From an uncultured bacterium (GTDB lineage: Bacteria > Actinomycetota > Actinomycetes > S36-B12 > CAIKAW01), in assembly GCA_903825575.1 (NCBI GenBank), contig CAIKAW010000047.1, positions 21,891 through 85,890 on the forward strand: a stretch of 64,000 nt of DNA, in the 5' to 3' direction. This document shows positions 3,692-50,466 of this stretch, piece after piece. Position numbers and translations under genes: made by a program. How positions within the stretch are numbered: position 1 is the stretch's first letter; each line of letters begins with the position of its first letter. The notes beneath the pieces are model-generated. The model did no database searches. It was not told where the DNA came from and saw only the letters and a list, made by a program, of their open reading frames with translations.

Positions 3692-3701
3692 AGGGATAAG
3701 T

Positions 3702-32794: not shown

Positions 32795-34630
32795 CTAGTG
32801 GACCAACACGCCAACGCTGGTAGCCACCCCGGTCAGGTAGCCAGCCTTGAACGCCGATACATATAGCGTCAAGACCTTCCCCTTGTCCGCTGCGACTGCC
32901 TTGTACGTCGTCGCTGTGGCGCCCGAACGCACGATTACCGTTCCACGCTTCCAGACATACAAGTAGCTCGTCGGAGCCAATGTCCAAGTGCCGCGACTGG
33001 CCGTAAACGTCTTGCCCACCGCCGCGATACCCGTGTAGACGATCTTTGGCTTTACGCTCGCAACTGGGGCAGCCCCTGCTGCCACCAACGCCACGGCACT
33101 GGAGGCCGGCACCGAACTCGTGGGGTTAGCCGCCGTCACCGTGCAAAGCACGCTCTTACCGACGTAAGACGCCGTGAGAACGCCCAAACTTGATGACGTG
33201 GCACCCACGATAGCCACCCCATTTAGCGCCCAGGCGTAGGAATACACGCCTGCGTACGTCCACGTCCCGGGGTTACAGCTGATCGCAACGCCAACGCGCG
33301 CCGCACCAAGTGCTGGTGCGATCACGTTCGCCGGCGCGGGCAGGGTCACCGTGTAAGTGATCGGCGAACCGGTCGAGTCAGAAGCAGCGAAAAGCCCGGT
33401 CGGCACGTAGGTAGCGGTGAATGAGTGCGCACCGATGCTTAGTGTCGAAGCAGCAACGGTCTTCACCGCAACACCCGAGCCGTTCAGTGCCACCCCAGAT
33501 GCGAGGACTGTGACGCCATCGCTAAAAGTGACGGACCCGGGAGGCACTGTTGCCGGCGTCGTCGTGTCGCTGACGGTCGCGGTCAGCACAACGGGGGTGC
33601 TGGTGTCCGCAGACGAGACTGGCGCGGCCACCAACACCGTTGAGGTTCCGTCAGGGTTGACGACGTTGAAGGTCAACGCGGCTGACGCCGACGCCGCATA
33701 AGACGCCGGCACCGACGCCGTGAAGGCAGCTGTAATCGAGTGGGACGCCACCGAAAGTGTTTGCCCAGAGAGACTGGCCAGACCAGTACCTGTGTTGTAA
33801 GTGGCAGCACCTAGATCAGTAACACCGTCGAGGAAGTGGACCGATCCAGCAGGGTGCGTGCTGTCCGCAGCGTTGACAGTCGCCTGGAAGGTAACTGCCG
33901 AGCCAGACGCAGTCGGGTTGGTAGCAGGCACAACTACTGGCGTGGTGATGCTCGTGGTCGTGGCAGCCACCGGCGGTACCGGGTAGACAACCTTCCAACT
34001 CCCGGCGGCCAGACCATCCCCGAGTGCTGACGCGCCCGTGTTGTACTCAATGTCGGCCGACCAGAAGTACTTGGCGTTGTTTAGTGCGCTGCTTGGAACA
34101 CCGATTCCACTGTCCTTCAGGCGGACTTGGATGATGTTCGCGTAGCCTGCCGTGGCATCCAAGGTCGCAACCTGTGCCGGCGCCTGGACGTTTCCGTCGG
34201 TGGCCGTAAGAGAGGCAACTGGGTCCGTAGACCCGAGTGCGGCAACGGGCGCCGGTGAGGCAACCGGGAAATTCGTCGAGGCCGACCCACTTACCGCGGC
34301 CCAAGTAGTGCTGTCGGCCTTGGTGTGGTCAGGGAAGGCGTAGCTAAGGGTTGCGAGGCTCGCGTTGGTCCGTGCCGGCGTTCCAGTCGTCCCTACAAAA
34401 TCGGAAATGTGCGTCAGGTCATTTCCGCCTGTGATCACACTTCCGGACGCGTCGTAGAAGACCAGGCCGCCCTTGGAATTGGGATCAAGATTTGAGCAGT
34501 TGAGCGCAGCAGTGAACAAACAGGGTCCCGTCTCCCACGGAGGTGCTGCAGTTGCTGACGCAGGTCCTGCCGCAGTCAGCAATGATGCAACGACGACCGC
34601 GGAGCCAGCTGTCGCTAGCAGGTGCCGCAT
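32795..34630 (-). CDS. secreted surface protein: N-terminal ~190-aa domain shared with the 637-aa paralogue, two bacterial Ig-like repeats and two C-terminal ~85-aa repeats
   Basis: ATG 34630 gives the signal peptide MRHLLATAGSAVVVASLLTAAGPASATA. The Ig-like units follow the pattern G.VTF.A.V...GSV.F.DG...L...H.ITA. Confidence 0.8.
   Translation of the reverse strand: MRHLLATAGSAVVVASLLTAAGPASATAAPPWETGPCLFTAALNCSNLDPNSKGGLVFYDASGSVITGGNDLTHISDFVGTTGTPARTNASLATLSYAFPDHTKADSTTWAAVSGSASTNFPVASPAPVAALGSTDPVASLTATDGNVQAPAQVATLDATAGYANIIQVRLKDSGIGVPSSALNNAKYFWSADIEYNTGASALGDGLAAGSWKVVYPVPPVAATTTSITTPVVVPATNPTASGSAVTFQATVNAADSTHPAGSVHFLDGVTDLGAATYNTGTGLASLSGQTLSVASHSITAAFTASVPASYAASASAALTFNVVNPDGTSTVLVAAPVSSADTSTPVVLTATVSDTTTPATVPPGSVTFSDGVTVLASGVALNGSGVAVKTVAASTLSIGAHSFTATYVPTGLFAASDSTGSPITYTVTLPAPANVIAPALGAARVGVAISCNPGTWTYAGVYSYAWALNGVAIVGATSSSLGVLTASYVGKSVLCTVTAANPTSSVPASSAVALVAAGAAPVASVKPKIVYTGIAAVGKTFTASRGTWTLAPTSYLYVWKRGTVIVRSGATATTYKAVAADKGKVLTLYVSAFKAGYLTGVATSVGVLVH
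32798..33340 (-). repeat. two tandem ~85-aa protein repeats (VG...GTWT...Y.Y.W...G..I..GAT...Y....GK.L...V.A)
   Basis: By-eye alignment of aa 447-535 against aa 538-627 of the 627-aa ORF. Confidence 0.55.
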
Positions 34631-34726
34631 CTTCACGTTGATTCCCTTCTTGGTTCTCCAGGTCCGGCGGAGCGCCATCCCTGGTTCTTGCGTTTAGCGA
34701 AAAGCCGTGCACTTGCCGGTCAGAAA

Positions 34727-35587
34727 TCAGTCAGGGGTCCTTGTTGCTGGTCGGCGCCTCGCCACGACGAAACCCAGACCAACTCCCAGCACAGGAAGAA
34801 CGATGAGGGCAACGAATACACCGGTGGAGATCCCTGCGAATCCCTTGCTGCCGGTTGACGACGCGAGCGCCAAGTTCACAGTTGCTCCGGTCTCCGAAGT
34901 TGACGGCGCCCCGGTTCCCACGATCTGCGGGGCCTCGGTGCCACCAATCAGCGTCGGCGCCACCGTGGGAATAGAGGAAGCGGGCAACTGCTGCACTTCA
35001 TCCGAAACCCCGGTTCCGTCCGTGCATGACACCGATCCGCCGCTAACAACCGTCCAGGTACCTCCGGTCACTTTGATCACAGTGGCCGGGTAGGGGCGGA
35101 GGTGCGGTACCGCGTTGACGTTCGAGTAGATCAGACGCAACTGGAGCAGCCCGTCCCACAATGGGGCGATGCTCGTGAGATCGACTAGCGGCGGGTCCAA
35201 GTACGTCGACTGGGCCATGGGGTGTTGCACGTTTGAGTACGAAGTTGAACCGGTGAACTGCTTGCCGCTCCACTCCCCTGAATTAACATTCTGTCGAGGC
35301 TGATAGATGGCCAGTGTCACCTTGCCTAGCGGGCCGACATAGCTCTTTGGCGCAGGAGTCGACGACACCGCGCGCCAAACAAATGGAATGTCGGTGGTCT
35401 TGCCAGAGGTGACCGGATGCCCCGACTTATCACACAGTCCGATGAAGCCCTGCGCATTGGCATCCGCGAAAGGTAGCGCCGGATCGGCAGCCTGTGCGGG
35501 CACAGCAAGCACCGCCGAGCCAACCAACAGCGCCAACACACCGAGCACTCGAATGATCATGTTGCGTCCTACGGATCCCATGTTCAC
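34727..35587 (-). CDS. secreted protein with C-terminal transmembrane helix and RRR tail (hypothetical)
   Basis: Signal peptide ending AQA/ADP. The C-terminus is ...GFAGISTGVFVALIVLPVLGVGLGFVVARRRPATRTPD. GTGA overlap with the upstream DUF916-like stop. Confidence 0.75.
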   Translation of the reverse strand: MNMGSVGRNMIIRVLGVLALLVGSAVLAVPAQAADPALPFADANAQGFIGLCDKSGHPVTSGKTTDIPFVWRAVSSTPAPKSYVGPLGKVTLAIYQPRQNVNSGEWSGKQFTGSTSYSNVQHPMAQSTYLDPPLVDLTSIAPLWDGLLQLRLIYSNVNAVPHLRPYPATVIKVTGGTWTVVSGGSVSCTDGTGVSDEVQQLPASSIPTVAPTLIGGTEAPQIVGTGAPSTSETGATVNLALASSTGSKGFAGISTGVFVALIVLPVLGVGLGFVVARRRPATRTPD

Positions 35588-36738
35588 CTTCCGTGCCTTC
35601 GTGGCCCCGCCGAAACAAGGTCGGACGATTTGTCGGACTCACCTTCAGCGGACTTGCCCCGACGTCCATGGTTCGGTACCGGCCGCGCGCCTCGGATTGA
35701 GCGCAGGTACATCACCACCAAGAAGAGCAATAGGAGTAGTCCGCCATCGCTCCACGGGACGGCCCAAATCCCAACCGCAGCCCTTGCCGTTGCTGCACTG
35801 GGATCTGCATCGCCGGCCGGAACCACGGGGGTCACTTGAACCTGGGCAGTCAGGTGCACCAATGCGGGCACACCAGTGACTGTGACGCTGACGACGGCGG
35901 AACCGCCCGGCAACAGCATCGGAAGGTCAGCGACTGCGGCCGCCGGGTAGGACAGTCCAACCAGCGAATGCAGCACCACCTGTTGCTGCCCGCCGAGGCG
36001 CACGTTGCCAGAGTTGCGCACCCGGTAGGTCACCACGGCTGCGCCGGTGCCGAATGGATTCACCGTACCGACGAAGTGCGCCTTCAAATTATCGACCGTG
36101 AGTTGGCCCTGGATAGCGCCGGCGACTCGGATCGCAAGTCGGATGGCAATTCGTTGCTCGAGTTTGAGATTCGCGGCGTGGCTGCCGTTAGCTTGACTCT
36201 CAGATACCACCGAGGCCACGACGCCGGCGAGATGGTCGCCGATGTATGCCTCAGGTGGTACCTGAATCGTGAAGTTCACGATGACTGTCGTGCGTGCGGG
36301 CACGACGACAAAAGGTTTTTCGCCGGGAGTGTGGAACGTAACCCAAGTCGCCACATCGGTCGGCTTGGCCAATCGGGGATCAAGTGCAAGGGAACCATCC
36401 GCAGCATTCCGAATGGTCGCGGCATACAGATTGAGCCTAAGTGCGTGCTGGCTCAGGTTCACCAATGCGATCTGATCGGAGATCACTCCGGTTCTGGCCT
36501 GGACGAAGTCGAAGTTGGCGCGTCGATCGACCTTGCCGTTGGTGGCCGGTCCGATCCCAAATGTGTCAACCGCGGGGGTCGCGATGGACGTCGACGCAGC
36601 AGGTGACGGGGCTGGAGTCCCGGCCGCCAGGGCCGCAGCATTAGGGGCCGCCGCTAGTGCACACGCCAAGGCCAAGGAAGCACCCATTCGACTTGAGTAA
36701 CCTGACCGCGCCACCTGCTCATCACATCTTGTCGACAT
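35584..36738 (-). CDS. DUF916/DUF3324-like cell-surface protein with C-terminal membrane anchor (CscA-like)
   Basis: The pattern NFDF...G.ISDQIALVNLS...L.LNLY...W.TF...FVVVPARTTVIVNFTIQVP...GDHLAGVVAS, plus a late transmembrane helix and a basic tail, resembles DUF916 proteins of WxL clusters. The start is uncertain. I chose ATG 36738 because it lies downstream of a strong hairpin. The ORF-track start is 36825. Confidence 0.65.
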   Translation of the reverse strand: MSTRCDEQVARSGYSSRMGASLALACALAAAPNAAALAAGTPAPSPAASTSIATPAVDTFGIGPATNGKVDRRANFDFVQARTGVISDQIALVNLSQHALRLNLYAATIRNAADGSLALDPRLAKPTDVATWVTFHTPGEKPFVVVPARTTVIVNFTIQVPPEAYIGDHLAGVVASVVSESQANGSHAANLKLEQRIAIRLAIRVAGAIQGQLTVDNLKAHFVGTVNPFGTGAAVVTYRVRNSGNVRLGGQQQVVLHSLVGLSYPAAAVADLPMLLPGGSAVVSVTVTGVPALVHLTAQVQVTPVVPAGDADPSAATARAAVGIWAVPWSDGGLLLLLFLVVMYLRSIRGARPVPNHGRRGKSAEGESDKSSDLVSAGPRRHGR

Positions 36739-36780
36739 GACTGGCAGCCCACGGGACGGTGAACGCCGGATTACGGAAGT

Positions 36781-36804
36781 GGGGCGAACCCGAAGGTCCG
36801 CCCC
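36781..36804 (-). other. stable intercistronic RNA hairpin with cUUCGg tetraloop
   Basis: The minus-strand RNA reads GGGGCGGACC-UUCG-GGUUCGCCCC (10 bp, one G-U pair). It starts 45 nt after the 637-aa gene stop and has no U-tract. Confidence 0.55.
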
Positions 36805-36848
36805 ACTTCGTAATGCTCGATCCATGAATACCGGACCGAGCTTTGGAT

Positions 36849-38762
36849 CTAGCTACCGAGAACCGTGAAGGTCAAGGTTCCTAGGTAGGTGCCATCAACC
36901 GTGTTAGTTGGGGCGTTGATCGACAGAAGTCCGTGGATGACCGTGGTGCCCTGACCGCTGTTCGCGTGAAGGACCTCGTGTCCACTTACTCCGCCAAGGC
37001 CAGCACTGCCCGTGTCTGATGCTGACAGGTGTGCACCTGCAGCGTTGTCAAACGCGGAGAAGTTCTGCCCAGTCGTGCTCGCACCGATCGCCAAGCTGCC
37101 CAAGAACGTGCTCGGGGTTGCGTTCGTCGAGGTGAGCAGGAGGTTGGTCAAGCCGACGTTCTCGCCACTGATCTGCTGAGCATTGCTCGGCGAACCGCCA
37201 ATACCCTGCTTGACCAAGTTCGATGCCAGCGCGCTCAACGTGTACGCCAGGTTACCCGGACGGGTGTCCAGCACCGAAATGCCAGCGAACTGACCCGAGG
37301 TCGAGTAGTTCGTGACGTTCGAGTCGATCGTCATGTCGGGAAGAACCAGCGGCGACCCAGTCGAGTAAGGCGTCGACAGCGTGATTGTTCCGGGCTGGAT
37401 GGTCGTCTCGATGCCCGCCACTGCCGGGGTGTATGCCGGCAGAGCAACCACGAGTGAGGCTGCACTGCTCTGCGACGACTGGTAGGTCAGCGAGTCCGTT
37501 GGCGTAAACACAGCGTAAATGTTGCTGTGCGTTGCCACGGTCAGGCTGCTTGACGACACATTGAACGTGAAGGGCGAGGAAGCGGCCGTCAAACCGATCT
37601 GCACTCCGTTGTCAAACAGAGCAACGGTTCCAGCGGTCAGTGGGCTTCCACCAACCGTTACGACCGCCGTGACCGAGAAAGCGTCAGGCTGATTGACCGT
37701 GCCGGTGCCGTCAACACTTGTGATGTTGCCGAGTGTGGTCACGGTCGCAGCAGCTGCCGTGTGGTTCACCCGGAACGTCAAAGCCGACGACGTGCTGCTG
37801 CCCAGGTCGCTGAAAGCAGCCGGAGTGAACGCAGCCGTGATCGTGTGGTTCGTAAAGGCGCCCGACTCTGAAAGGGCAGACGTGGTCACGCCGAGCGTCT
37901 GGCCGGCCGAGGTGATCGTCTGGGCTGCGCCCAAGGCGACGCCGCCGTCGTAGAACTGGACCGAACCACTGGCCGGGTTAGTGCCGGTGGCAGCCGTGAC
38001 CGAGGTTGAGAAGGTCACGCTTGTGCCTGCGTACTGTGGGCTGGCCGGGCTAGCCGTAGGAGTCGCCACCGTGGTCGTGCGGATAACGGCCGCCGGGTAG
38101 ATGACCTGCCAGTTACCCGGCGCCAAACCATCGGAGAGCGCTGATCCACCGTTGTTGTACTCAATGTCGGTGGACCAGAAGTAGTTCGGGCTGTTGACGC
38201 CAGTGGAAGCCAGGCCAATGCCACCGTCCTTAACCCGAACCTGGATGACATTGGCGTAGCCTGCCGACGAATCCAGCGAGGCAACACCAAGCAAGTTGGT
38301 GAGGTTGACATCGCTTGACCCCAGCGTGACGACCGGCACCGTGGTGCCGAGCGCCGCAAGGTTCGACGGTGAGCCGACGGGGAACGAGGTCGACGCCGAT
38401 CCCGAGAAGGTTGCCCACGTGAGCGAGTTGGCCTTGGTGTGGTCCGGTACGCCGAAAATGACGTTGGCGAGGTTTGCGTTGGTCCGGGCCGCTGTTCCGG
38501 TCGTCGAGACGTAGGCGGCCAAGTTGGAAAGGTTTGTTCCGCCGGTGATCACGTTGCCCGAAGAGTCGTAAAAAATGATGCCACCCTTGGAGTTTTGGTC
38601 AAGGTTGGGGTAGTTCAGTGCCGAGGAGAAAAGGGTGTTGCCCGTTTCCCAAGCCGGGGTGCCCGTGTATGCCGAAGCACCAGTCACCCCCGCGACGATG
38701 CCGACGCCTGCGAGCGCCAGAGCTGCAGTCGAAGCGATAGCAGCCTTTCGGAGTTGCTTCAT
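36849..38762 (-). CDS. large secreted surface protein: shared N-terminal domain, two Ig-like repeats and a C-terminal degenerate WxL-like domain (CscC-like)
   Basis: Signal peptide MKQLRKAAIASTAALALAGVGIVAGVTGASA. The N-domain is about 60% identical by eye to the 627-aa paralogue. The C-terminal ~185 aa follow the WxL layout (GTITLS..., ISVLDTRPGNLAYTLSA, ...GTYLGTLTFTVLGS). Confidence 0.8.
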   Translation of the reverse strand: MKQLRKAAIASTAALALAGVGIVAGVTGASAYTGTPAWETGNTLFSSALNYPNLDQNSKGGIIFYDSSGNVITGGTNLSNLAAYVSTTGTAARTNANLANVIFGVPDHTKANSLTWATFSGSASTSFPVGSPSNLAALGTTVPVVTLGSSDVNLTNLLGVASLDSSAGYANVIQVRVKDGGIGLASTGVNSPNYFWSTDIEYNNGGSALSDGLAPGNWQVIYPAAVIRTTTVATPTASPASPQYAGTSVTFSTSVTAATGTNPASGSVQFYDGGVALGAAQTITSAGQTLGVTTSALSESGAFTNHTITAAFTPAAFSDLGSSTSSALTFRVNHTAAAATVTTLGNITSVDGTGTVNQPDAFSVTAVVTVGGSPLTAGTVALFDNGVQIGLTAASSPFTFNVSSSSLTVATHSNIYAVFTPTDSLTYQSSQSSAASLVVALPAYTPAVAGIETTIQPGTITLSTPYSTGSPLVLPDMTIDSNVTNYSTSGQFAGISVLDTRPGNLAYTLSALASNLVKQGIGGSPSNAQQISGENVGLTNLLLTSTNATPSTFLGSLAIGASTTGQNFSAFDNAAGAHLSASDTGSAGLGGVSGHEVLHANSGQGTTVIHGLLSINAPTNTVDGTYLGTLTFTVLGS

Positions 38763-38897: not shown

Positions 38898-40352
38898 TCA
38901 GTCGGCTGAGGTCACCGTGTTGAGGAACGAGTACGCCGGGGTGAACCCTGACGACGAGATCAGGGCCGAAGCGGCCGCTGTATCGAAGTAGGGCGCCCCA
39001 CCAGGTCCAAATGTGTTCGTTCCATCGGTCGTGCAACCTTGTGAACCGGCTACCCCAAGCAGCGCCACGTTACCGAACGAGGTGCCCGAGCAAGGGTTGG
39101 CGAACAACGTACGGATCAGGTTCTGGTTGATGCCAGGCTCAAACTGGTCCGCGTGGTTACTGATTTCCGCGTTGCGGAAGTAGATGTAGACATCGCGCGT
39201 GGTCTTCCACCAGCCAGCACCGGTCTGCTGCGTGACTGCCGGCGCCCAAGCTGCAGGCTGTGGGAAGTTGATTGACGACACTGCGCCAACACCACACGAA
39301 ACGTTGGTCGTACCGTAGCCCGTGCCACCGGCGCTTCCGACAGCGTTGCTGCCGTAGGTGCAGGAGGGGTCGACGAAGTACGGGTAGGCGCTCGAACCGG
39401 CGTTGTTCGTGCCATCACCCTTGAGCCCGAGGAAAAGGTTCATACGGGCACCTGAGATTGGTTCGATTGCGTCAGCCTTTGAAGTCACCTGGGCGATCGC
39501 TTCGGGGTCGTTCTCTTCAACGGCGGTCGCGCAGTTGCCTGGCACGAGCGCGGTAACCTGACCGACTCCAGTGGTAGCCGAGGCGAAGAAGCTGAACGTG
39601 CCCGAGGCAGTCTGCGGGTAGAGCGGCACGATGACGTTGGCGCTACCACCGCTGTTGCCGGCGATCTCGTTCCAAGTCACGCAACCTGTGCCACCGAAAC
39701 CGTTCGTGCCACCTGTAGTGGCAGAGTAGATCTTGTAGATGTCCGCGGCTGAAAGCGCGACCGCGTGAGTGGTGGCTGCGGTAAGCATGACGAAGTTCTC
39801 GGTGCCGACAGTGATTCGGGAAGTCGAACTAGGTGTCGTGAACGAACTACCCTTTTTGGCCGAGGACCGAGCAAAGTCGATGTTCTTCAACGCACCAACA
39901 ATGTCATTGTTGAGAGCTCCTACGCCGGCACCTGAGCCATTCGGCCGCTGAACTGGGCGCAACCCAGCGCGCAAGACGATCGTCGGGTTCAGCTGGCAAA
40001 CCGTGTCAACGTGGAACACGCTGGCCAGGCCGGTACCAGTCTTCGTTCCAGTGCCCGGCGAACATGAGCCCTGAGTGGATCCGACAACGCCGTAAGCCAG
40101 GCGCGCATTCGCGTCGGCGGTGGCGTCAAAGTTGATGAGTCGGTTGACGTTGCCGAGGGCGTTGAAGCCGGTGGCGCCGAGGTGATTTCCATCGGCGACG
40201 AAGTCGACGAGGTACTGCAAGGTGTCGGAACCAACGCCGACGGCGTCGCCCGTACCTGGTGCGTAGTCGGCCGAAGCCGGACCTGCGGTTAACACGGATA
40301 GCGCGAGGGCTCCCGCGGCAGCCGCGGTTACCGCGAGCTTCTTGATCTGCAT
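38898..40352 (-). CDS. secreted PstS-family / type-2 periplasmic-binding-protein-like protein, Cys-rich, no anchor
   Basis: ATG 40352 gives the signal peptide MQIKKLAVTAAAAGALALSVLTAGPASA. PstS-like motifs are present: VGSDTLQYL, NGSGAGVGAL...IDFARSS, VTWNEIAG, ASGTFSFF. It has 8 Cys. Confidence 0.72.
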   Translation of the reverse strand: MQIKKLAVTAAAAGALALSVLTAGPASADYAPGTGDAVGVGSDTLQYLVDFVADGNHLGATGFNALGNVNRLINFDATADANARLAYGVVGSTQGSCSPGTGTKTGTGLASVFHVDTVCQLNPTIVLRAGLRPVQRPNGSGAGVGALNNDIVGALKNIDFARSSAKKGSSFTTPSSTSRITVGTENFVMLTAATTHAVALSAADIYKIYSATTGGTNGFGGTGCVTWNEIAGNSGGSANVIVPLYPQTASGTFSFFASATTGVGQVTALVPGNCATAVEENDPEAIAQVTSKADAIEPISGARMNLFLGLKGDGTNNAGSSAYPYFVDPSCTYGSNAVGSAGGTGYGTTNVSCGVGAVSSINFPQPAAWAPAVTQQTGAGWWKTTRDVYIYFRNAEISNHADQFEPGINQNLIRTLFANPCSGTSFGNVALLGVAGSQGCTTDGTNTFGPGGAPYFDTAAASALISSSGFTPAYSFLNTVTSAD

Positions 40353-40531
40353 TTGCTGTCCCCTTCCGGACAGAGGCGTTTGAACAGGATCAAATTGGCA
40401 GGGCAACACAACGACCGGGCATGCCTACTCTTAACAATGAGTGAACCGATCAGGTCAACTTCAAGATCCGGCTCAGGAACGGTGCCAGATAGTCCGATGG
40501 AGCCAGGTTCGCCCGCCGACGGGGACAGGCG

Positions 40532-41383
40532 TTACAGCAGATTTGGCAGCAGGCGGATCGCTGATTCACTGGCCAACCAGAGTCCGGCGAGGACGAGCGG
40601 CAGTCCTAGCAGCCAGGTTTGCCACCTTCCCCAGCGGAACCAAGCCCAAACCACCAACGCCGCAATCGCGATCAGCAAGGGAAGCGCCAAGGCCAGTGGC
40701 AGCAAGCCATTGGGATCCACTTGCAGCGCCTGTTCGGAGAGGGGGACCGCTGCAGGCCGTCCCGGAAGTGTCGCTAGACCCGTACCCTTCAGTGCCGCAT
40801 CTATGTAGAGCAAACCTCGAGCGGACAGTCCTGCAAACCCGAGGTGGCTGCCCGTTACAAGCGTGAGTCGGCCACCGCCGAGCGCCAGTGCCGGCGGCAA
40901 GTTGTCGCCGCCCTGTCTAAGTCCGGACACCGTGTAGGAAAAGACGCCCTGCCCCGTCGTGGCGGTGATCGTGTCGCCCACCTTGATGCGGGCCAAAGCC
41001 CCGAATGGGCCGCCAAACAAGGTCGCGCGACCGTAGAGCACCGAGTCGCCCGACTGCCCCGGCAACGGAGTATCCCGTCGGTGTCCTACTCCAGCCTCGA
41101 GGTCGCCGGCAGCGGTCCCTTCGATAACAACAGCATTGGTCAGGCCAATCGCGGGGACTGTGAGCAAAGCGACCGGAGATCCCGGGGCGATGCTCCCACC
41201 CAGCGGTGCAGTTTGGGCGGCCAATTGCGCCCGCAGGCTCGAATACAGGCCAGCTTGCTCGTGGGCGGTCTGCATCGGCGTGAGGAACACTGCGTAGGCG
41301 ACGAACCACAGCGAGAGCGCGGAAACGGTTCCGAGTACCCAGGCAGAAACTCCTCTAGGTATCGAAACTGGTCTACGCGCCAT
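40532..41383 (-). CDS. sortase-fold membrane protein lacking the catalytic Cys/His/Arg (pseudo-sortase)
   Basis: N-terminal transmembrane helix, then LLTVPAIGLTNAVVIEGT...GVGHRRDTPLPGQSGDSVLYGRATLFGGPF...IKVGDTI...FSYTV...RLTLVTGSH. This parallels class E sortase blocks, but AGHR is replaced by YGRA and TLVTC by TLVTG. The protein has no cysteine at all. Two extra C-terminal transmembrane helices follow. Confidence 0.7.
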   Translation of the reverse strand: MARRPVSIPRGVSAWVLGTVSALSLWFVAYAVFLTPMQTAHEQAGLYSSLRAQLAAQTAPLGGSIAPGSPVALLTVPAIGLTNAVVIEGTAAGDLEAGVGHRRDTPLPGQSGDSVLYGRATLFGGPFGALARIKVGDTITATTGQGVFSYTVSGLRQGGDNLPPALALGGGRLTLVTGSHLGFAGLSARGLLYIDAALKGTGLATLPGRPAAVPLSEQALQVDPNGLLPLALALPLLIAIAALVVWAWFRWGRWQTWLLGLPLVLAGLWLASESAIRLLPNLL

Positions 41384-44088
41384 CAGGCTCGACTCCAGAA
41401 TCCGGTGATGATGGTGCCGATACCGCTCACCAGAGCAAGGACTAGCAGGGCGGGCAGCACCAGACCAGCCCCACCTTGTGGCGAACCGGCGGTTTGCCCC
41501 ACCGCTGCGATCGCCGACATTGACGGCAAGGCCGAAGGTGTGACCGACACAGTTGGGGTCGGGCTCGCAACGGGACTACTCGTAGCCGTTGCTGCAGGAG
41601 TCGGCGACGGTGTCGGCGGCCTTGATGATCCGTCCACTGCGGGCACGTAGCCCTGCTGAGCCAGGATCGCCGCACCTGCCTCTTGGTCGTACGCCAAAAG
41701 CGAGCCAGCTCCATTGGCTAGCGTCAATGGAAGGAAGCCGCCCGGCAATTGCCCATTGGCCGGTCCCGGCGATTGACCGGTCGTTGTGGTCCAGTCCAGC
41801 AACGTGGCGAATCGCTGAGCATCTGCCACAGCCAGTCCCTGAGTCGGCACATCCAACGTGAAGATCATCGTCCCGGGGTAGCCCGCGGATCCAGCCTTAC
41901 TCGCCAGCAAGTCATAAGGCACGGGCCAGGCCTGCACCGCCTTAACGGGCTGGAACAGTTTCAGCGCCGCCCGTAGCGATGCGACTGTCGGCGCCACGAA
42001 TAACCTGCCAACGGCGCTGGTGAAAGCGGTGCCAGAGCCAGAAGCAACCGACGATTGCAGGGACGCCGTGTGGAATTGGTAACGAGATGCGTCCGCCAGC
42101 GACACCAGCCCTAGGACGAATCGCTTGGTTGGGGTTTCCCGGCCAATCGATGTCAACTTTTGATTCGACTGCCCCGGATTTGTGCACACGATCTGTGAGT
42201 TGGCAATCGCGAACTGCATGTTCAGCGACACCAAGGCGGGATCGCTCACAGGTGCCGCTGCCAAGTTGAGCCACGGTGTCGGATTTGCGCCAATGCAAGG
42301 ATTGATAGTCGCCGTATACGGGGATATGAAAGAGTCTCGCAATGTCCAGCCTTCGACCGGCAACGTGATGTGATCGTAGTTGGGGTTGACTCGCATCCCC
42401 CAAGGGTCGGGTTGACCATTGATGAATGCTCTCGCCTCTGGATCGGCAGCTAGGTAAGCCGTAAGCGACCGGATCATGTCCGAGTCACTGTTGACAGTGA
42501 AGAGCGTCGATGCTGCGACCGTGCTGTAGCCATCGTTGAGAAGGGCCGGATTCAACGCCCGGAACTCAGGGTCGCGACCAAGGTCGAGCGGATTGCCGCG
42601 CACCCCGATGTATTCCCCCGACAGCGTCGGATTTGACGCGTAGGACTGCGTTAGCAACTTGGCCAAGAGTCGTGGAGTTAGGTTTAACGTAGTGAGCGGC
42701 TGACCATTCGCCCCGTCAATCGAGAAGGCGATGGCAAAACCACTCACGGCGATCGGTGCCTGCACAATTGGTTTCGTGAATGGCGTCAAAGGTGCAGCCC
42801 CGGCGAAAGCTGCACTGATATTGCCGACGTTAAGAAGATTCTTGGCTTCCGGCTCGCTGGTCTGAACGTGCTGAAACCGGAACAACTTGGGATCGGTACA
42901 GAAGGTTGGCTGCCATTGGAGCGTCGCCTGAACCAGGGCCTGCGAACCGTAGATCAGGGACGGTGCCGCGGAAGACGCCAGATCGCAGACGTTCGAAGGC
43001 GGTACGAAACTCAGCGGGAAACTAATCCGATTGCGCCAGTTCGACGCGGACCACCACAGTTCGCCGGCCACGGCCATGTCTTCGGAGCCGTTTTGCACCG
43101 GCGCAGGAATGGCTGGATCGTAGTGCCCGGTCGCCGAGCACGTCTTGAAGTACATGGCCCGAAACTTCGCTTGCGGTTGGTCAACCGCGGGTAGGTCGGC
43201 GCCGACGACATCGCAGCTAATACCCATGATCGGGATAACGACCAGCGAACACGGCACGGTCGAGGAGCAACCTAACGACGCGTTTGACTCGGCAGTGTTG
43301 ATCACGAACTTGGCAGCGCCGTTGCCCGAAAGATCGGTGCTGGCGTAGGTCGTGTTCTCCGGAATCTGGGCCTGTTCGACACTTGCCTCTGGCGCCATTC
43401 CACCGCAGCCGTTTGGACCTCCGGGATACACGGTTCCGTTCGCCGTAACGAAAGGAACCCAGTGGTCTGTTCCACTCGACGTACCGACGCAGGCTGCCGG
43501 GACGGGATCAGGGATGCCGACCCGAAACTGTCGATCCAGCGAACTCGCGTAGCGGTCCACCCGAAATGGAGGGAACGGCGAGTTCACTGAAAGCATCCGC
43601 TCGTCGGGAACCTGGGTCCAACACGTACTGGGGTCAATCCGCTTTGCTGCCGCGACACTTGCGCTATCAATCCCGCGACATTCCATGATCACAACCGGGT
43701 ATTCCAAGCTAGCCGCGAGCAAGGAGTTCGGATCGGTTACGAAGCCACCGGTCGGGTGCGCACCACTCCAACTGACGTTAACCGGCTGCCGGTTGCGCAG
43801 GTTAGTAGTCACATCGACTGACACAGTCACGTTCCGGGTGTCAGCAACCTGGTCGGCCCCATTAACTAGGTGCACGCGGGTGACAGTCACTGTCTTGGAG
43901 ACCGCCGAAGCGGCGGCTGGAATCGCGGCCTTCCTGACCTTGGGGCTAGTCGCGGCACCGTAGGCCGGAGCGACGACAACGAGGCCAACAGCGGCGGCCA
44001 CGAAGGTGCAAAGAAGAATGCGGAAACTCGTTCGATCGGTATGCATTCGTCTTTTCGACCTGCCAAGTCGATTGCGTACCGAAATCAC
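41383..44088 (-). CDS. 901-aa Cys-rich secreted protein: N-terminal unknown domain, degenerate PstS-like binding-protein domain, Pro/Thr/Ser linker and C-terminal transmembrane anchor
   Basis: GTG 44088 forms GTGA with the upstream stop; an alternative ATG lies at 44046. Signal peptide present. Residues ~375-815 align by eye to the PstS layout. The linker is PPTPSPTPAATATSSPVASPTPTVSVTPS, followed by a hydrophobic helix. Confidence 0.75.
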   Translation of the reverse strand: MISVRNRLGRSKRRMHTDRTSFRILLCTFVAAAVGLVVVAPAYGAATSPKVRKAAIPAAASAVSKTVTVTRVHLVNGADQVADTRNVTVSVDVTTNLRNRQPVNVSWSGAHPTGGFVTDPNSLLAASLEYPVVIMECRGIDSASVAAAKRIDPSTCWTQVPDERMLSVNSPFPPFRVDRYASSLDRQFRVGIPDPVPAACVGTSSGTDHWVPFVTANGTVYPGGPNGCGGMAPEASVEQAQIPENTTYASTDLSGNGAAKFVINTAESNASLGCSSTVPCSLVVIPIMGISCDVVGADLPAVDQPQAKFRAMYFKTCSATGHYDPAIPAPVQNGSEDMAVAGELWWSASNWRNRISFPLSFVPPSNVCDLASSAAPSLIYGSQALVQATLQWQPTFCTDPKLFRFQHVQTSEPEAKNLLNVGNISAAFAGAAPLTPFTKPIVQAPIAVSGFAIAFSIDGANGQPLTTLNLTPRLLAKLLTQSYASNPTLSGEYIGVRGNPLDLGRDPEFRALNPALLNDGYSTVAASTLFTVNSDSDMIRSLTAYLAADPEARAFINGQPDPWGMRVNPNYDHITLPVEGWTLRDSFISPYTATINPCIGANPTPWLNLAAAPVSDPALVSLNMQFAIANSQIVCTNPGQSNQKLTSIGRETPTKRFVLGLVSLADASRYQFHTASLQSSVASGSGTAFTSAVGRLFVAPTVASLRAALKLFQPVKAVQAWPVPYDLLASKAGSAGYPGTMIFTLDVPTQGLAVADAQRFATLLDWTTTTGQSPGPANGQLPGGFLPLTLANGAGSLLAYDQEAGAAILAQQGYVPAVDGSSRPPTPSPTPAATATSSPVASPTPTVSVTPSALPSMSAIAAVGQTAGSPQGGAGLVLPALLVLALVSGIGTIITGFWSRA

Positions 44089-45740
44089 GACGTGGACCTA
44101 CGGCGTCGGATGAAGTAGAAGTAGATGACCGGAGGCAACGCGAGCAGCGCGATCAGTTCCAAAGCCACAACAGGAGCTAACTGGCTGGTCAGATCGATCG
44201 CTCGGTAGGGACCAACCTCGGTGACCGTGCCAGTCACGTCGGCCGCGGAAACACCCCCATTCCCATTTCCACTCGTGCCAGTGCCAGTGCCTGAGCCCGT
44301 GCCGGTCCCTGTTCCCGTGCCAGTCCCCGTCCCAGTGCCAGTACCCGTTCCAGCACCAGTACCAGCACCCGTTCCAGTGCCCGTACCCGTACCCGTTCCA
44401 GTGCCAGTACCAGTACCCGTCGTGCCGTTGTTGCCGCCGTCCGTGCACGGCCCGGTGCCGCCCTTGTCGCACGATGGCGGCTGCGGAGCGATTTCGGCCA
44501 AGTAGTTACGCGTCGGTTGGCCCGCAACGAAGGTCGGGTTGTGGCAGGTCGTGATGTTTCTTGACGTCAAGTCAACGCCCGAGTCGGCGGTCTTGAGTTT
44601 GGCCGTTTGTTCGAAACTTGCCTGCACCAGGTTGACAGGCAAAGGCGAATATCCGATGGGTCCCATCTCGGCTTGCCCTTGGCAGATCGAGTAATAGAGG
44701 AAGTCAGCCAGCGTCTGGCGCTTAGCCGTTGTCATCCTGGAGTCGTTCGATGCAGTTGGAATGATCATGTAGGAGTACGAGGACAACGGATACGTCCGTT
44801 TGTCGCTGTAGGTGTAGACCTTGTCCAGATTCTGCAGCAAGTAGTCCGGCGAAGTCTTATTTTGATTGATCTGGGCCTGCGTCAACGCCACGGCCACGTT
44901 GTATTGCGTCGGCAAAGTGAAGTAGCCGGCAGTGTTCTCGATCTTGGCAACCGGGTAGTTCTTTGACAGCGCGTACGAGAATTCGTCGTAGCCGATAGAC
45001 CCATTGGCCGCCCCAGAACTGATGAAGTTAATCACGCCGTCCGAACCGTTTTGGGCGATCGCGCCACCGCGACGGGGAAAGTACTCAGTTAGACCCGACT
45101 GACCAAAGAACGGACGCCAGATGGTGGGGTACTGCTTATCCAAGTAACGGGTGAATTGCGCGCTGGAACCTGAGCCCTCCGAGTGCACCACCGGGATGAT
45201 CTGAAGTGACGGCAACTTGCGCCCGTTGTTGTCGGTCGTGATGGCCGGGTCATTCCAGTTCGTGATCTGGTTCGTGAAGATCTTTGCCAGCGTAAGGCCA
45301 GAGAGACGAAGGTTGCGAACAAGCTGCCCCGCCACCTGAATCTGATAGGGGAAGGACGTGCCACCCGCCACCACAGGAAGGTAGGCGAAGCCTCGGCAGG
45401 TCGTCTTGTCGGCCGGGTTAAGGCATGGTGAGTCACTGTCGCTAGTTACTGCGTCCACACCTTGATATCCGATGTCGGAAACGGCGTAATCGGTAGTCCG
45501 ATTCGTGAAGTCCTTGCGCCCCTGCGCTGAACCTGTCGAGGTGTAGACAACCTGCAAACCGCTGGAAGAAACATCGGCCACCCACTGGTTGACTGCATTA
45601 GCACTCCAGCTTGAGCCGGACCCTGTGATCTGCGCATGGCTACCAGCGGCCGTTGCCGCTGGAACGGTGGCCACCAGCGCCGTGCCGGCCATCGCGAAGA
45701 CTGCCAGAAGCAGCCGGACTCCGCGGGCGGTGGGTTTCAT
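44085..45740 (-). CDS. pstS: PstS-like phosphate-binding protein with Gly-Thr repeat stalk and C-terminal transmembrane anchor
   Basis: ATGA overlap with the pstA stop. AxA signal peptide with no lipobox Cys. PstS blocks are present: ITGSGSSWS, STGSAQG, DYAVSD, ITNWNDP, VVHSEGSGSSAQFTRYL, GSIGYDEFSYA, YPLSSYSYMIIP. These are followed by a ~50-residue (G-T)n tract, a hydrophobic helix and an RRRRSTS tail. Confidence 0.82.
   Translation of the reverse strand: MKPTARGVRLLLAVFAMAGTALVATVPAATAAGSHAQITGSGSSWSANAVNQWVADVSSSGLQVVYTSTGSAQGRKDFTNRTTDYAVSDIGYQGVDAVTSDSDSPCLNPADKTTCRGFAYLPVVAGGTSFPYQIQVAGQLVRNLRLSGLTLAKIFTNQITNWNDPAITTDNNGRKLPSLQIIPVVHSEGSGSSAQFTRYLDKQYPTIWRPFFGQSGLTEYFPRRGGAIAQNGSDGVINFISSGAANGSIGYDEFSYALSKNYPVAKIENTAGYFTLPTQYNVAVALTQAQINQNKTSPDYLLQNLDKVYTYSDKRTYPLSSYSYMIIPTASNDSRMTTAKRQTLADFLYYSICQGQAEMGPIGYSPLPVNLVQASFEQTAKLKTADSGVDLTSRNITTCHNPTFVAGQPTRNYLAEIAPQPPSCDKGGTGPCTDGGNNGTTGTGTGTGTGTGTGTGTGAGTGAGTGTGTGTGTGTGTGTGTGSGTGTGTSGNGNGGVSAADVTGTVTEVGPYRAIDLTSQLAPVVALELIALLALPPVIYFYFIRRRRSTS
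44270..44425 (-). repeat. Gly-Thr dipeptide repeat tract encoded with mixed synonymous codons
   Basis: The minus strand reads GGN-ACN repeats with occasional Ala/Ser. All three GGN/ACN codon variants are intermixed. The tract creates spurious repeat ORFs in the other frames. Confidence 0.9.
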
Positions 45741-46849
45741 CGCTTACCGACCTTCTGTCTGGCGAGGAATCGCGTGATCACAAAGAGAATCAGAACAAGT
45801 GCGAGAAGGACGCTGGCTGCGCCGAATCCGCGCGCGATGAACTCTGGCTCACCACTTCGTACGGCCGAGAACACATAAAGCGGCAATGAGTTCATCGGCT
45901 CCTGCAGCGGGTTCACGTTCGTGTACGTAGATGCACCCGACGTAAGGAGCACCGGCGATGTCTCCCCAACCCCTCGGGCGATACCCAGAATCAGCGCAGT
46001 CGCGAGGCCTGAACGCACGGTAGGAATCACAACCTGTCGAACGGTCTGCCACTTCGAGGCACCCAATGCAAGGCTCGCCTCGCGCAGTCCACCAGGCATC
46101 ACACGTAGCACGACATCCGCAGACCGAGCGATAATCGGAAGCATCATCACCGAGATTGCCGCAGCGGCCGCGATCCCCGTGCGGGAGATGCCAAGCATCA
46201 CAATCAGGATTGTGTAGATGAAGAGTCCGGCAACGATCGACGGTAAAGCGGTCATGGCTTCCACAAGGGTGCGAACAACTTTCGAGAACCGTCCGCCGAC
46301 TTCGTTCAAATAGATAGCAGTTCCGACACCCAGTGGAAGCGTTACTGCGATCGCGATACCAATCTCGATAACGGACCCGAGAACGGCGTGCAAGATGCCA
46401 CCGCGGCTTAGCGCATCGGTGGGTCGGACGCCGGCCATGTCCTTGGTGAAGAAGTTCAAGTGAGTCAAGGCCGGGAAGCCCCGGACGAAGGTGAACATGA
46501 TCGAGGTGAAAAGCGCGAAGAAGACGAGCGCCGCTGCGCCACGGATTGCGGCCCCCACCACTCGATCAACTACGACCTGACTGGGATTGCCCACCGCAGT
46601 AGCCCCAGCAAAAAGGGCAAGGAATAGGCAGTACCACAGCACCAAGAACCCCAACGTTCCTGAGAACGGCAGGATCTTCGTGTAAAGCAGCCAATCGAGC
46701 GCCAGGGCTCCGGCGACGGCGCCTACGAACGAGAAGAGATCGTCCTGGGTGCGGGACTTAGTGGCACGCGGATGGTCTGGTTCGGCGACGGGCAGAATGC
46801 CAGCATTGGCTTCTTGCGGATTCTCACGGAAGTCCAGTTGATCAGTCAT
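45737..46849 (-). CDS. pstA: phosphate ABC transporter permease PstA
   Basis: 370 aa with EASLALGASKWQTVRQVVIP...ARGVGETSPVLLT, a PstA-type signature. Confidence 0.9.
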   Translation of the reverse strand: MTDQLDFRENPQEANAGILPVAEPDHPRATKSRTQDDLFSFVGAVAGALALDWLLYTKILPFSGTLGFLVLWYCLFLALFAGATAVGNPSQVVVDRVVGAAIRGAAALVFFALFTSIMFTFVRGFPALTHLNFFTKDMAGVRPTDALSRGGILHAVLGSVIEIGIAIAVTLPLGVGTAIYLNEVGGRFSKVVRTLVEAMTALPSIVAGLFIYTILIVMLGISRTGIAAAAAISVMMLPIIARSADVVLRVMPGGLREASLALGASKWQTVRQVVIPTVRSGLATALILGIARGVGETSPVLLTSGASTYTNVNPLQEPMNSLPLYVFSAVRSGEPEFIARGFGAASVLLALVLILFVITRFLARQKVGKR

Positions 46850-46857
46850 CAGCGTTC

Positions 46858-47886
46858 CTAGTCCGTAACCGCGCCACTACGACTGCGACTTACGATCGTG
46901 GCAGCCAAGGTGTTCACAATCAGCGTGATGATGAACAGCACGAATCCGGCCGTAAGCAGTGCCGACAATTGAGCTGAGGTGGCTTCGCCAAACCGGCCAG
47001 CGATCAATGCGGAGACGGTACTGGTCCCGACCTCAAGCGGACGGAACTTGATGTCAAACGACGGCGAGATAATCAGGACCACTGCGATCGTCTCGCCAAG
47101 GGCCCTACCCATGCTCAGCATCGTCCCGCCGATGATGCCGCCACGGCCAAAGGGCAACACGACGGTGCGGATCATCCCCCACTTGGTGGACCCCAAAGCC
47201 AAAGCCGCTTCCCGCTCGCCCAACGGCGCTTGCGAGAAGACTTGCCGCATAACAGCAGCAGCCATTGGCAACACCATCATCGAAACGGCGATGCCGGCGA
47301 TAAAAGCTGAGGCCGCGTAACGGGATTGAGCCCACACGGGCGCATTCGGATCGGTATCAACGTGAAAGAACGGAAGAAACCCTAAGTTCACATTCAGCCA
47401 GTGCGCCAAGTTGATAGCCCGGGGCTGCAACAGGAAGAAACCCCAAAGTCCCCAAACAATGCTTGGAATCGCGGCCATGAGGTCGATCATCGAAACCAGC
47501 AGCCCCTTGATCCGCGGGACTGCGTACTCACTGATATATAGCGCAACGCTCAGAGCTAGCGGGAACGCAATCGCGAGGGCCACCACCGCCACAGTGAACG
47601 TTCCGAGCAGGACAGCTGATATGCCAAGGATGTCTCGTTCTGGCAACCACTGGTTCTGTGTGAAGAAGGACAAGCCGTAGCGCTTGAACGTAGGGATTGA
47701 CTGCACACCCAGAAAGACGCCGATGGCGCCCATGATGAGGAGGACCAGCACCCCGACCGCTCGTGCCCCGGCATAGAAGATCCGATCGACCCGAGGCAGT
47801 GCCGGATCAATCGCTCGCGGACGGTCTTCGTCAACTCCACTTGGATCAGGCAATGGGGTCTGACCTAGATCGATCAGAATCGTCAT
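46858..47886 (-). CDS. pstC: phosphate ABC transporter permease PstC
   Basis: 342 aa with EAALALGSTKWGMIRTVVLP...GRALGETIAV, a PstC-type signature. Confidence 0.9.
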   Translation of the reverse strand: MTILIDLGQTPLPDPSGVDEDRPRAIDPALPRVDRIFYAGARAVGVLVLLIMGAIGVFLGVQSIPTFKRYGLSFFTQNQWLPERDILGISAVLLGTFTVAVVALAIAFPLALSVALYISEYAVPRIKGLLVSMIDLMAAIPSIVWGLWGFFLLQPRAINLAHWLNVNLGFLPFFHVDTDPNAPVWAQSRYAASAFIAGIAVSMMVLPMAAAVMRQVFSQAPLGEREAALALGSTKWGMIRTVVLPFGRGGIIGGTMLSMGRALGETIAVVLIISPSFDIKFRPLEVGTSTVSALIAGRFGEATSAQLSALLTAGFVLFIITLIVNTLAATIVSRSRSGAVTD

Positions 47887-47964
47887 TGCGTCCTCCTAAT
47901 CCGGACTGGCGCAGGTAGCACGGCCCCCACGGGGCACATCAACAAATCCACGGCAAGATCAGGC

Positions 47965-48786
47965 TCAGCCGAAGCGGCCATTCACGTAGTCGGCTGTCCG
48001 TTGATCAACAGGACTTTGGAAGATCTGTTCGGTGTCACCGACTTCGACGATCCCACCTGGCGTCCCTTGCTCAGCGAGGAAGAACGCGCACTGCTGAGAC
48101 ACGCGAGCAGCCTGCTGCATGTTGTGCGTCACGATCACAACGGTGACTTGTTCGCGAATCTCAGAGATGGTCTCTTCAACGCGACGGGTCGATGTCGGAT
48201 CCAGTGCCGAGCAGGGCTCATCCATCAAGAGCACCTCGGGCTCGACCGCTAGCGATCGAGCGATGCACAACCGTTGCTGCTGACCACCAGATAGTGCGCT
48301 TCCCGGCTCCTTCAGGCGGTCTTTCACTTCCTTCCACAACCCTGCGCGCGTCAAACTCGTCTCAATGATCCAGTCACGGTCGCTACGCCAGTTCTTCACG
48401 CCAGCCAACTTGAGTCCCGATACAACGTTGTCTGCGATCGACATGGCTGGGAATGGGTTGGGCTTCTGGAAGACCATGCCAATCCGCTTGCGCGTGGCGG
48501 TGATGCGGTGGCCCGTCGCGTAGATGTCCTCACCGTCAAGAAGCACTTCACCATTAAGTCGGGCAGACGGCACCAACTCGTGCATCCGGTTGAGCACGCG
48601 CAAGAATGTTGACTTGCCGCAGCCGGACGGCCCGATGAGCGCAGTCACTGTCTTCGCTGGCATGTCGAGAGATACCCGTTCAAGGACCTTGTTGCTTCCG
48701 AACCAAGCTGAAACGCCTTGGGCTGAAAGGACGCCGCCTGAGAAATCGGTGACCCGGCCGGTGGCGGGACTCAACAACACGCTCAT
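47965..48786 (-). CDS. pstB: phosphate ABC transporter ATP-binding protein PstB
   Basis: [42 protein letters not shown] and YVNGRFG motifs. I moved the start to ATG 48786, preceded by GGAGAGAGGAAAGG. The ORF-track start at 48810 is TTG. Confidence 0.93.
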
Positions 48787-48868
48787 GCCTTTCCTCTCTC
48801 CAGCGGTCAACGTTGAGGCCTACTAGGCCCGCGTTTGCTGGAATCAAACTTGCCTCAGCGGTTACAAC

Positions 48869-48912
48869 GACGTGCCGACCCAAGGTGAACAGAAGGTGTC
48901 CATTTCATGAAC
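48869..48912 (-). promoter_or_regulatory. PHO-box-like array: four 11-nt direct repeat units upstream of pstB
   Basis: The minus strand reads GTTCATGAAAT GGACACCTTCT GTTCACCTTGG GTCGGCACGTC. The unit starts at 48912, 48901, 48890 and 48879 are exactly 11 nt apart. The array ends about 83 nt upstream of the pstB ATG. Confidence 0.65.
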
Positions 48913-49487: not shown

Positions 49488-49559
49488 GACCCCAATTCAG
49501 CTCCGGTAGGGAGTCAAGTTTGCTATACAGAAGGTTCCACCCAAGTCACCTAGCAAGAC

Positions 49560-49581
49560 TGCAGGTGAACACAAGATGAAA
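49560..49581 (-). promoter_or_regulatory. second, weaker PHO-box-like pair upstream of the FKBP lipoprotein gene
   Basis: The minus strand reads TTTCATCTTGT GTTCACCTGCA, with unit starts 11 nt apart. It lies between the lgt stop (49595) and the FKBP ATG (49487). Confidence 0.35.
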
Positions 49582-49594
49582 TGCCGTGGCGAGC

Positions 49595-50458: not shown

Positions 50459-50466
50459 CGACGTGA

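Follow-up and report, generated by a model that had tools for sequence, protein, structure and literature searches.

We analysed a 64,000-nucleotide stretch of contig CAIKAW010000047.1 (the window), from an uncultured member of the Actinomycetota, in which a phosphate-specific transport (pst) operon includes a gene for a 901-residue anchored protein. We refer to the product of this open reading frame (ORF) as X901 and to its neighbours as PstS551, Srt283, and PBP503. A first-pass annotation of the window had proposed that X901 carries a degenerate PstS-like domain behind a cysteine-rich N-terminal module. We found that residues ~375 to 815 of X901 almost certainly adopt a PstS-derived type-2 binding-protein fold, as judged from a structural model and from profile alignments, and that the site where PstS would hold phosphate looks remodelled. 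X901 is also, very probably, an obligate partner of the Pst genes and of a gene for a pseudo-sortase.

An AlphaFold2 model of X901, built from a 115-sequence alignment, had a mean predicted local distance difference test score (pLDDT) of 89.5 and a predicted template-modelling score (pTM) of 0.84, with residues 61 to 830 nearly all above 90. When this model was compared with the PDB by Foldseek, the top 30 matches were exclusively PstS and DING proteins (E = 1.9e-8 to 2.3e-4). The best of these was M. tuberculosis PstS-1, E. coli PstS was also among the 30, and the target TM-scores were 0.77 for cyanophage PstS and 0.76 for Xanthomonas PhoX. The annotation had staked its call on some significant type-2 match being found for the C-terminal half. 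Because this was searched for and the Foldseek matches reached E = 1.9e-8, the call of a degenerate PstS-like domain at residues 375 to 815 (exactly nucleotides 41644 to 42966) stands. Profile-profile alignment with hhalign then reproduced, across the whole domain, the order of PstS blocks that had been read by eye. The X901 family first aligned with the PstS551 family at E = 0.017 over 167 columns; with a more diverse set of 162 sequences, the alignment improved to E = 3e-4 and 335 co-linear columns, joining X901 residues 358 to 803 to PstS551 residues 22 to 382. The Pfam domain PBP_like_2 (PF12849) was matched directly by 6 of 48 divergent X901 relatives (best, 5.5e-5), and a profile of the divergent family found PstS-1 as its top match among PDB sequences (E = 0.006).

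The relationship is a distant one at the level of X901 itself. It had no match in Pfam or NCBIfam, where thresholds relaxed to E ≤ 1 or E ≤ 0.1 still brought up neither PBP_like_2 nor TIGR00975, and it did not reach the curated cutoffs for PstS proper (PBP_like_2 gathering, TIGR00975 equivalog). BLASTP of X901 against the two neighbouring binding proteins gave nothing significant (E = 0.46 for PstS551 and 0.87 for the other), and the close-family profile returned one spurious match to WDR24 from the PDB sequences and was otherwise empty. Because X901 falls short of the curated threshold and, as described below, of the ligand-site test, we place it outside PstS proper, among derived proteins of the PstS superfamily; it has gained a novel fused domain and has unusual partners.

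X901 shares the two-lobe type-2 fold of PstS, PstS-1, and PhoX (1ixh, 1pc3, and 5i84; target TM-scores, 0.65 to 0.77); like PstS, it is encoded with pstC, pstA, and pstB, and its sequence blocks are co-linear with those of PstS across the domain. Unlike PstS, it has a replaced clamp, a 315-residue N-terminal module, several long insertions (one presumably closed by the invariant pair C598/C635), and a C-terminal transmembrane (TM) anchor where PstS is lipid-anchored or free in the periplasm. The DING/HPBP proteins (PfluDING, 4f1v; 2q9t) also add insertions and disulfides to a PstS-superfamily fold, and they matched the model at E values of ~1e-5 to 1e-4. However, their phosphate site is complete and of very high affinity; they have neither an N-terminal module nor a membrane anchor and are structurally more distant from X901 (target TM-score, about 0.5) than PstS proper is.

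We then mapped the former phosphate site by chaining the X901-to-PstS551 profile alignment to an alignment of PstS551 with solved PstS proteins, and we checked the register against the secondary structure of the model, in which helices start at residues 383, 412, and 537. Family composition was counted over the 115 sequences, with E. coli PstS numbering given first. The position of Thr10 (Q383) is Glu in 76 sequences, Gln in 23, and Tyr in 15. Ser38 corresponds to S411, which is Ser in 60 (52%) and Gly in 41, and the adjoining E412 is Glu in 109. Asp56 falls at about residues 429 to 431, where there is no conserved acidic residue. Arg135 corresponds to N533, a Ser in 104 sequences (90%), while Asp137 (D535) is Asp in 98 and Ser139 (S536) is Ser in 109 (95%). 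The position of Gly140 (D537) is Asp in all 115, and that of Thr141 (M538) is a Val/Met position, with Val in 88. The clamp of PstS consists of Thr10/Phe11, Ser38, Asp56, Arg135, and Ser139-Gly140-Thr141; by this alignment, only the equivalents of Ser38 (S411) and Ser139 (S536) remain of it. The annotation had described the phosphate-binding S-G-T block as lost; this is true of the glycine, replaced by the invariant Asp537, and of the threonine, replaced by Val or Met at 538, but Ser536 is kept.

Carboxylates now stand at the three helix N-termini that face the anion in PstS. With the equivalents of Asp56, Arg135, Gly140, and Thr141 lost and conserved carboxylates gained, X901 is probably not a canonical orthophosphate binder, in line with the earlier suspicion that it is not a simple one. 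The site does not behave like a degenerating one. In the close X901 family its entropy was 0.73, compared with 1.45 for the domain background, and as low a value was seen in 57 of 20,000 random position sets and in 410 of 20,000 contiguous-block controls. Even in the most divergent members, G381, S382, S536, and D537 stay at or above 92%. Because conservation at the site exceeds that of the surrounding domain in the close family, it appears to be under selection rather than decaying, and it looks like a maintained Ser/Asp/Glu pocket formed by S382, E/Q383, E412, S536, and D537.

Ahead of this domain, the cysteine-rich region noticed in the first reading is a real module: modelled alone, residues 60 to 374 reached a pLDDT of 95.2 and a pTM of 0.93, as expected of a unit that folds independently. 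The model is beta-rich with many loops and begins with a long hairpin (strands 63 to 75 and 78 to 91). Foldseek found no significant relative of the module (best E = 0.14 in the PDB and 0.3 in BFVD), and the module has no Pfam or NCBIfam match. A phmmer search of 1.84 billion representative proteins gave 330 module matches, all with the same architecture or fragments of it; the module-bearing proteins are ~850 to 1000 residues long and carry it at the N-terminus. A 3,520-residue protein with 23 module "matches" (P0247) was discarded as a repeat and composition artefact: it gave no BLASTP alignment, and Pfam matched DUF6438/CFSR repeats in it. The module is therefore apparently a family-specific orphan domain. 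It contains a set of invariant residues (R71, W107, GAHPTGG with H111, E129, R164, R176, D178, R186, D293, and WWSASNWRNR) and may serve in binding or attachment.

The ORF, the motifs, the cysteine count, the linker, and the TM helix of X901 were all found where the annotation had placed them. VNVSWSG starts at residue 103, and the PstS-like blocks follow with IYGSQALVQATLQW at 379, APIAVSGFAIAFSI at 444, LNLTPRLLAKLLT at 468, DPEFRALNP at 506, LFTVNSDSDMIRSLTAYL at 529, FVAPT at 697, AGYPGTMIFTL at 735, ATLLDWTTTTGQ at 761, and GFLPLT at 784. The mature region has 12 cysteines (137, 156, 200, 228, 274, 280, 292, 317, 368, 397, 598, and 635), 8 or 9 of them within the first ~370 residues, and all 12 are invariant across the 115 homologs. 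The disulfide pairs to be expected are 137-156, 200-228, 274-280, 292-317, 368-397, and 598-635. C27, which lies in the signal peptide, is not conserved in this alignment. Public gene calls start X901 at Met15, giving 887 residues (P0001). The hydrophobic segment of the signal spans residues 20 to 45, and a lipobox-like motif occurs in just 1 of 115 family members, which rules out a lipoprotein. The C-terminal TM helix and basic tail are kept in 112 of 113 homologs. As read from these sequence features, X901 is a predicted Sec-exported protein that is tail-anchored at the membrane behind a Pro/Thr/Ser stalk of ~55 residues.

The minus strand of the window carries, in order, pstB, pstC, pstA, PstS551, X901, Srt283, and PBP503. 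The genes are tightly packed around X901: the PstS551 stop codon overlaps the GTG start of X901, and the start of Srt283 overlaps the X901 stop by 1 nucleotide. In all 39 related loci with full flanks, which span Actinomycetes and Acidimicrobiia, the six genes from pstB to Srt283 are present and co-directional. This core is usually extended to about eleven genes by the third binding protein and a WxL/Csc-like surface module. Clustered at 90%, the X901 family still numbers more than 1,169 proteins, and it was found in species-level genomes of at least 527 Actinomycetota. The 80 related loci are all from Actinomycetota, except for one contig labelled Oscillatoria (L028), and the lineages represented include Nanopelagicales, Frankiales, Jatrophihabitans, Nocardioides, Marmoricola, Pseudonocardiales, Streptosporangiaceae, and Acidimicrobiia. 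Three of the carriers are cultured strains: Nocardioides ginsengisoli JCM 16930, N. rubriscoriae DSM 23986, and Marmoricola sp. RAF53. Second pst genes adjoin the X901 cluster at two loci: one (L072) has the complete set of pstB, pstA, pstC, and pstS, encoded on the other strand, and the other (L069) has pstC and pstA only. These additional genes suggest that X901 goes with a Pst transporter of its own, a dedicated paralogue.

Table. Features of the X901 locus in window coordinates
Feature	Coordinates	Strand	Basis or remark
X901	41383..44088	(-)	901-aa ORF from a GTG codon; 887 aa if started at the ATG of M15
X901 signal-peptide region, basic and hydrophobic, residues 1-45	43954..44088	(-)	Hydropathy; low pLDDT except helix 20-39
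X901 N-terminal disulfide-rich beta module (predicted), residues 60-374	42967..43911	(-)	AlphaFold2, Foldseek, phmmer
X901 PstS-type (type-2) binding-protein fold with insertions (predicted), residues 375-815	41644..42966	(-)	Foldseek, hhalign, PBP_like_2, PDB profile
beta1-alpha1 loop Y380-G381-S382-Q383-A384, equivalent to PstS G8-F11	42937..42951	(-)	Thr10 position E/Q/Y
T410-S411-E412-P413, equivalent to PstS Ser38 loop	42850..42861	(-)	Ser partly kept; E412 95%
N533-S534-D535-S536-D537-M538, degenerate R135...S139-G140-T141 block	42475..42492	(-)	Alignments
X901 Pro/Thr/Ser-rich flexible linker, residues 816-872	41473..41643	(-)	pLDDT <50; holds AVGQTAG
X901 C-terminal TM helix and basic tail, residues 873-901	41386..41472	(-)	TM helix 873-897
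pstB (47965-48810), pstC (46858-47886), pstA (45737-46849)	45737..48810	(-)	Three NCBIfam equivalog cutoffs passed
PstS551, near-canonical PstS with Gly-Thr repeat linker and C-terminal TM anchor	44085..45740	(-)	PBP_like_2 2e-33
Srt283, polytopic pseudo-sortase	40532..41383	(-)	Pfam Sortase 8e-12
PBP503, secreted Cys-rich divergent PstS-like protein	38898..40409	(-)	hhalign against PstS551 family, E = 6.5e-6
WxL/Csc-like module (Y413, Big637)	32795..38762	(-)	Homolog domain matches, conserved synteny
PHO-box-like direct repeats, GTTCATgaaat ggaCACcttct GTTCAC, 11-nt period	48885..48912	(-)	Upstream of pstB

The protein encoded immediately after X901 proved to be a sortase by fold only. Srt283 is nearest to solved actinobacterial sortases such as 5go5 (2e-10) and 5cuw; it has extra C-terminal TM helices, and the copy in the window contains no cysteine at all. 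We aligned 79 sequences, namely the window protein and 78 homologs. At the cysteine column of the TLxTC motif there are 38 Ser, 30 Ala, 4 Gly, and 4 Thr, with 3 sequences gapped. In place of the catalytic His of the "GH" motif, every one of the 78 sequences that align there has Arg or Lys. The catalytic Cys and His are thus missing throughout the family, which is, on the evidence of these columns, catalytically dead. An active sortase that uses Ser was ruled out, since half of the family has Ala, Gly, or Thr in place of the Cys. A competent cognate sortase with a His-Cys-Arg triad was not found in the adjacent Srt283; the other sortases of the genome were not examined.

The tail of X901 resembles a sorting signal, with an [LV]-G-x-T motif, a TM helix, and a basic tail. 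The hydrophobic helix and basic tail recall the cell wall sorting signal (CWSS) substrates of actinobacterial class E sortases, in which they follow an LPXTG or LAXTG motif, and the X901 gene lies directly upstream of one for a sortase-fold protein. Unlike in CWSS pairs, the X901 motif is degenerate and modestly above chance, and Srt283 is dead and carries extra TM helices. Because the motif is degenerate and Srt283 lacks the catalytic Cys and His, covalent wall anchoring of X901 is very unlikely. Our hypothesis is that the dead sortase may recognise the X901 tail non-covalently. A natural in-frame fusion of X901 and the pseudo-sortase exists in a Microthrixaceae metagenome-assembled genome (P0115, 1,211 residues; L003 9001-12636, the same as L020). 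Other candidate fusions from long stop-to-stop ORFs were rejected, as only this locus has both parts in frame. A literature search found no description of this actinobacterial cluster, of the pseudo-sortase, or of a PstS-sortase linkage.

X901 had been put forward as a third PstS-fold protein in the operon, and the other two are PstS551 and PBP503. PstS551 scores 183 bits with TIGR00975, below the cutoff of 205. It keeps the equivalents of Ser/Thr10, Ser38, Asp56, and the S-G-S/T block, while the Arg135 position in its family is His in 51, Gln in 15, and Arg in 4. Its TM anchor (LAPVVALE..LPP) includes an LPP motif as well as a conserved Glu and is preceded by the conserved motif G-x-x-T-E-[LV]-A-x-Y-R. 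PBP503, with 9 cysteines, lacks a membrane anchor. It retains a G-S-G-T block; RPNGSGAG is a second conserved motif in this protein, and a fragment of a PBP503 homolog matches PF12849.

The surface module beyond PBP503 resembles the Csc/WxL cell-surface clusters described in Firmicutes (Siezen et al. 2006, PMC1534035). It includes a CscA-like protein, Y413, with a CscA-type C-terminal TM helix; WxLIP_PGBD (PF06030) was matched by 15 of 25 Y413 homologs (best, 7e-9). It also includes large multidomain proteins whose C-terminal domain is WxL-like and a small anchored protein. Among Big637 homologs, 18 of 20 have Big_3_5 Ig domains, and a minority, 3 of 20, have a detectable WxL domain (2.6e-5). 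Unlike the Firmicutes clusters, this module occurs in Actinomycetota and is joined to a Pst importer, three proteins with binding-protein folds, and a pseudo-sortase. X901 has no Csc counterpart.

We asked what role would fit these features. The likeliest of the readings considered is that X901 serves a specialised Pst-type uptake system as an accessory subunit that does not bind orthophosphate; we judge its chances to be evenly divided. The particular accessory or capture mechanism that we propose is more tentative, and we lean somewhat against its being right in full. In it, the X901 pocket, the N-terminal module, or both would capture other species (cationic, metal-bridged, or polymer-bound) or dock a partner. 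PstS551, tethered and near-canonical, would pass the anion to PstC/PstA. Srt283 would hold X901 by its sorting-signal-like tail without cleavage, beside the permease and the WxL-type wall complex. A bolder version makes X901 and the pseudo-sortase the keystone pair of an undescribed actinobacterial surface machine built on two co-opted pseudo-proteins: the dead sortase would grip the tails of the binding proteins, the carboxylate pocket and the orphan module would capture bound, metal-complexed, or polymeric phosphorus at the wall, the WxL complex would position the assembly, and PstS551 would relay phosphate to PstCAB. As a whole, this version is unlikely.

Several points weigh against the accessory-subunit reading and the mechanism attached to it. 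The mapping of the site leans on hhalign alignments of low probability (3 to 40%) together with the secondary-structure register. Among the most divergent family members, E412 is kept in just 69% and D535 in 27%, and the excess of conservation at the site is no longer significant. PstS itself reads protonated phosphate through a carboxylate, Asp56, so the presence of an Asp in the pocket is not enough to rule out an oxyanion. Residues such as R650, R656, and R695 may bring compensating positive charge into the pocket from other parts of the protein. The [LV]-G-x-T motif precedes the TM helix in 101 of 113 sequences (89%), only a modest excess over the 60% expected from shuffling or composition, and the fusion of X901 to the pseudo-sortase was found in one instance. 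At the regulatory level, GTTCA[CT] occurs upstream of pstB in 12 of 44 related loci, so the PHO-box-like element is not conserved, and we ruled it out as general proof of PhoP control.

One alternative is that X901 acts as a true substrate-binding protein, the second or third to feed PstC/PstA, and takes phosphate, another oxyanion, or an organophosphate (pyrophosphate, polyphosphate, phosphonate, or phosphoester) through non-canonical residues. Its PstS fold and homology and its invariable placement in a pst operon would fit this, as would the conserved N-cap serines S382 and S536 (A9/T10 and S139 in PstS) and the constraint on the site. One family member is even labelled [quoted passage not shown] by the Joint Genome Institute (JGI) pipeline. 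There is also precedent for alternative phosphate-binding architectures: the S-type protein SphX of Synechocystis has a PstS fold with a re-engineered site and altered affinity, and it binds phosphate through an Asp-Arg-Thr triad (PMC13614923). However, both published architectures retain an Arg (PMC13614923), and X901 has no equivalent of it and has extra carboxylates. Its Arg135 position is Ser in most of the family, and it has no equivalent of Asp56. At Gly140, where the backbone NH and the helix dipole bind phosphate, there is an invariant Asp, and E383 and E412 cap the other two helix dipoles, which would make the pocket strongly negative. A near-canonical PstS is, moreover, encoded next door. 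We regard a direct substrate-binding role as improbable.

A second alternative is that X901 is a ligand-free pseudo-receptor or scaffold whose PstS fold survives only as a rigid domain for structure or docking. The carboxylates would satisfy the helix dipoles in place of phosphate and possibly mimic the closed, loaded state, and X901 would organise or regulate a complex of PstS551, PBP503, the WxL proteins, and the pseudo-sortase. Acidic residues at exactly the three anion-facing helix N-termini would fit this, as would the pairing with another dead enzyme, the pseudo-sortase, and the co-occurrence with a WxL/Csc-like module; the rigidity of the model across both modules, seen in its pTM, fits as well. 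Against this, the former ligand loops are well conserved in close relatives, which fits a working pocket at least equally, and we doubt that X901 is a scaffold of this kind. It is also conceivable that the N-terminal module works outside the cell as an enzyme, such as a phosphoesterase, nuclease, or polyphosphatase; it would free phosphate from environmental or wall polymers, and the PstS-like domain would pass this product on to the transporter. The many invariant polar and charged residues of the module do resemble an active or binding site, and the pst context fits. However, the module has no similarity to hydrolases in Pfam, NCBIfam, the PDB, or BFVD, its beta-rich architecture with long loops is more typical of binding modules, and none of the metal-binding motifs of known phosphatases could be recognised in it. 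An enzymatic role is highly improbable.

Phosphate acquisition is a central limit for soil and freshwater Actinomycetota, including Nanopelagicales, Frankiales, Nocardioidaceae, and Acidimicrobiia/Microthrix, and actinobacterial Pst systems are usually annotated after the four-gene paradigm of E. coli. In the six-gene core described here, the largest protein belongs to an unannotated family that combines a fold-orphan domain with a repurposed PstS fold. If the accessory or capture role is true, it would be a new way for monoderm bacteria to extend an ATP-binding cassette (ABC) importer into or through the cell wall, and it would give a first functional context to a dead sortase and to WxL-type complexes outside Firmicutes. 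At minimum, over 1,100 "hypothetical proteins" gain an annotation that can be put to the test, and three cultured strains offer the means to do so.

Further observations concern the surroundings of these genes. The PHO-box-like repeat lies ~75 nucleotides upstream of the pstB start (TTG, 48810) and occurs nowhere else in the window, against a chance expectation of 0.03; this sequence element hints at phosphate-starvation control at the window locus. Directly upstream of the pst cluster (48924-51276 and beyond, minus strand) are envelope-biogenesis genes for an FKBP-type peptidyl-prolyl isomerase, Lgt, and a DsbA-like thioredoxin, the last preceded by a gene for a DoxX/MauE protein. The FKBP, Lgt, and DsbA-like neighbours could assist the oxidative folding of Cys-rich exported proteins; their linkage to the pst cluster is not conserved in other X901 loci. 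PstA is 370 residues long, and its TIGR00974 match starts at residue 104, which leaves an N-terminal extension of about 100 residues.

Within the PstS551 gene, the Gly-Thr linker of ~50 residues is encoded by a hexanucleotide tandem repeat of ~23 copies (44274-44420, minus strand). Two metagenome samples differ in the length of the gene product (551 and 549 residues), a sign that the repeat may be polymorphic in length. ARAGORN called a 95-nucleotide "tRNA-Asn" antisense within the PstS551 coding sequence (45195-45289, plus strand); it has no Rfam support and is probably a false positive. Elsewhere in the window, a flavin mononucleotide (FMN) riboswitch (RF00050, 96 bits; 3565-3693, minus strand) immediately precedes the ORF at 2480-3574.

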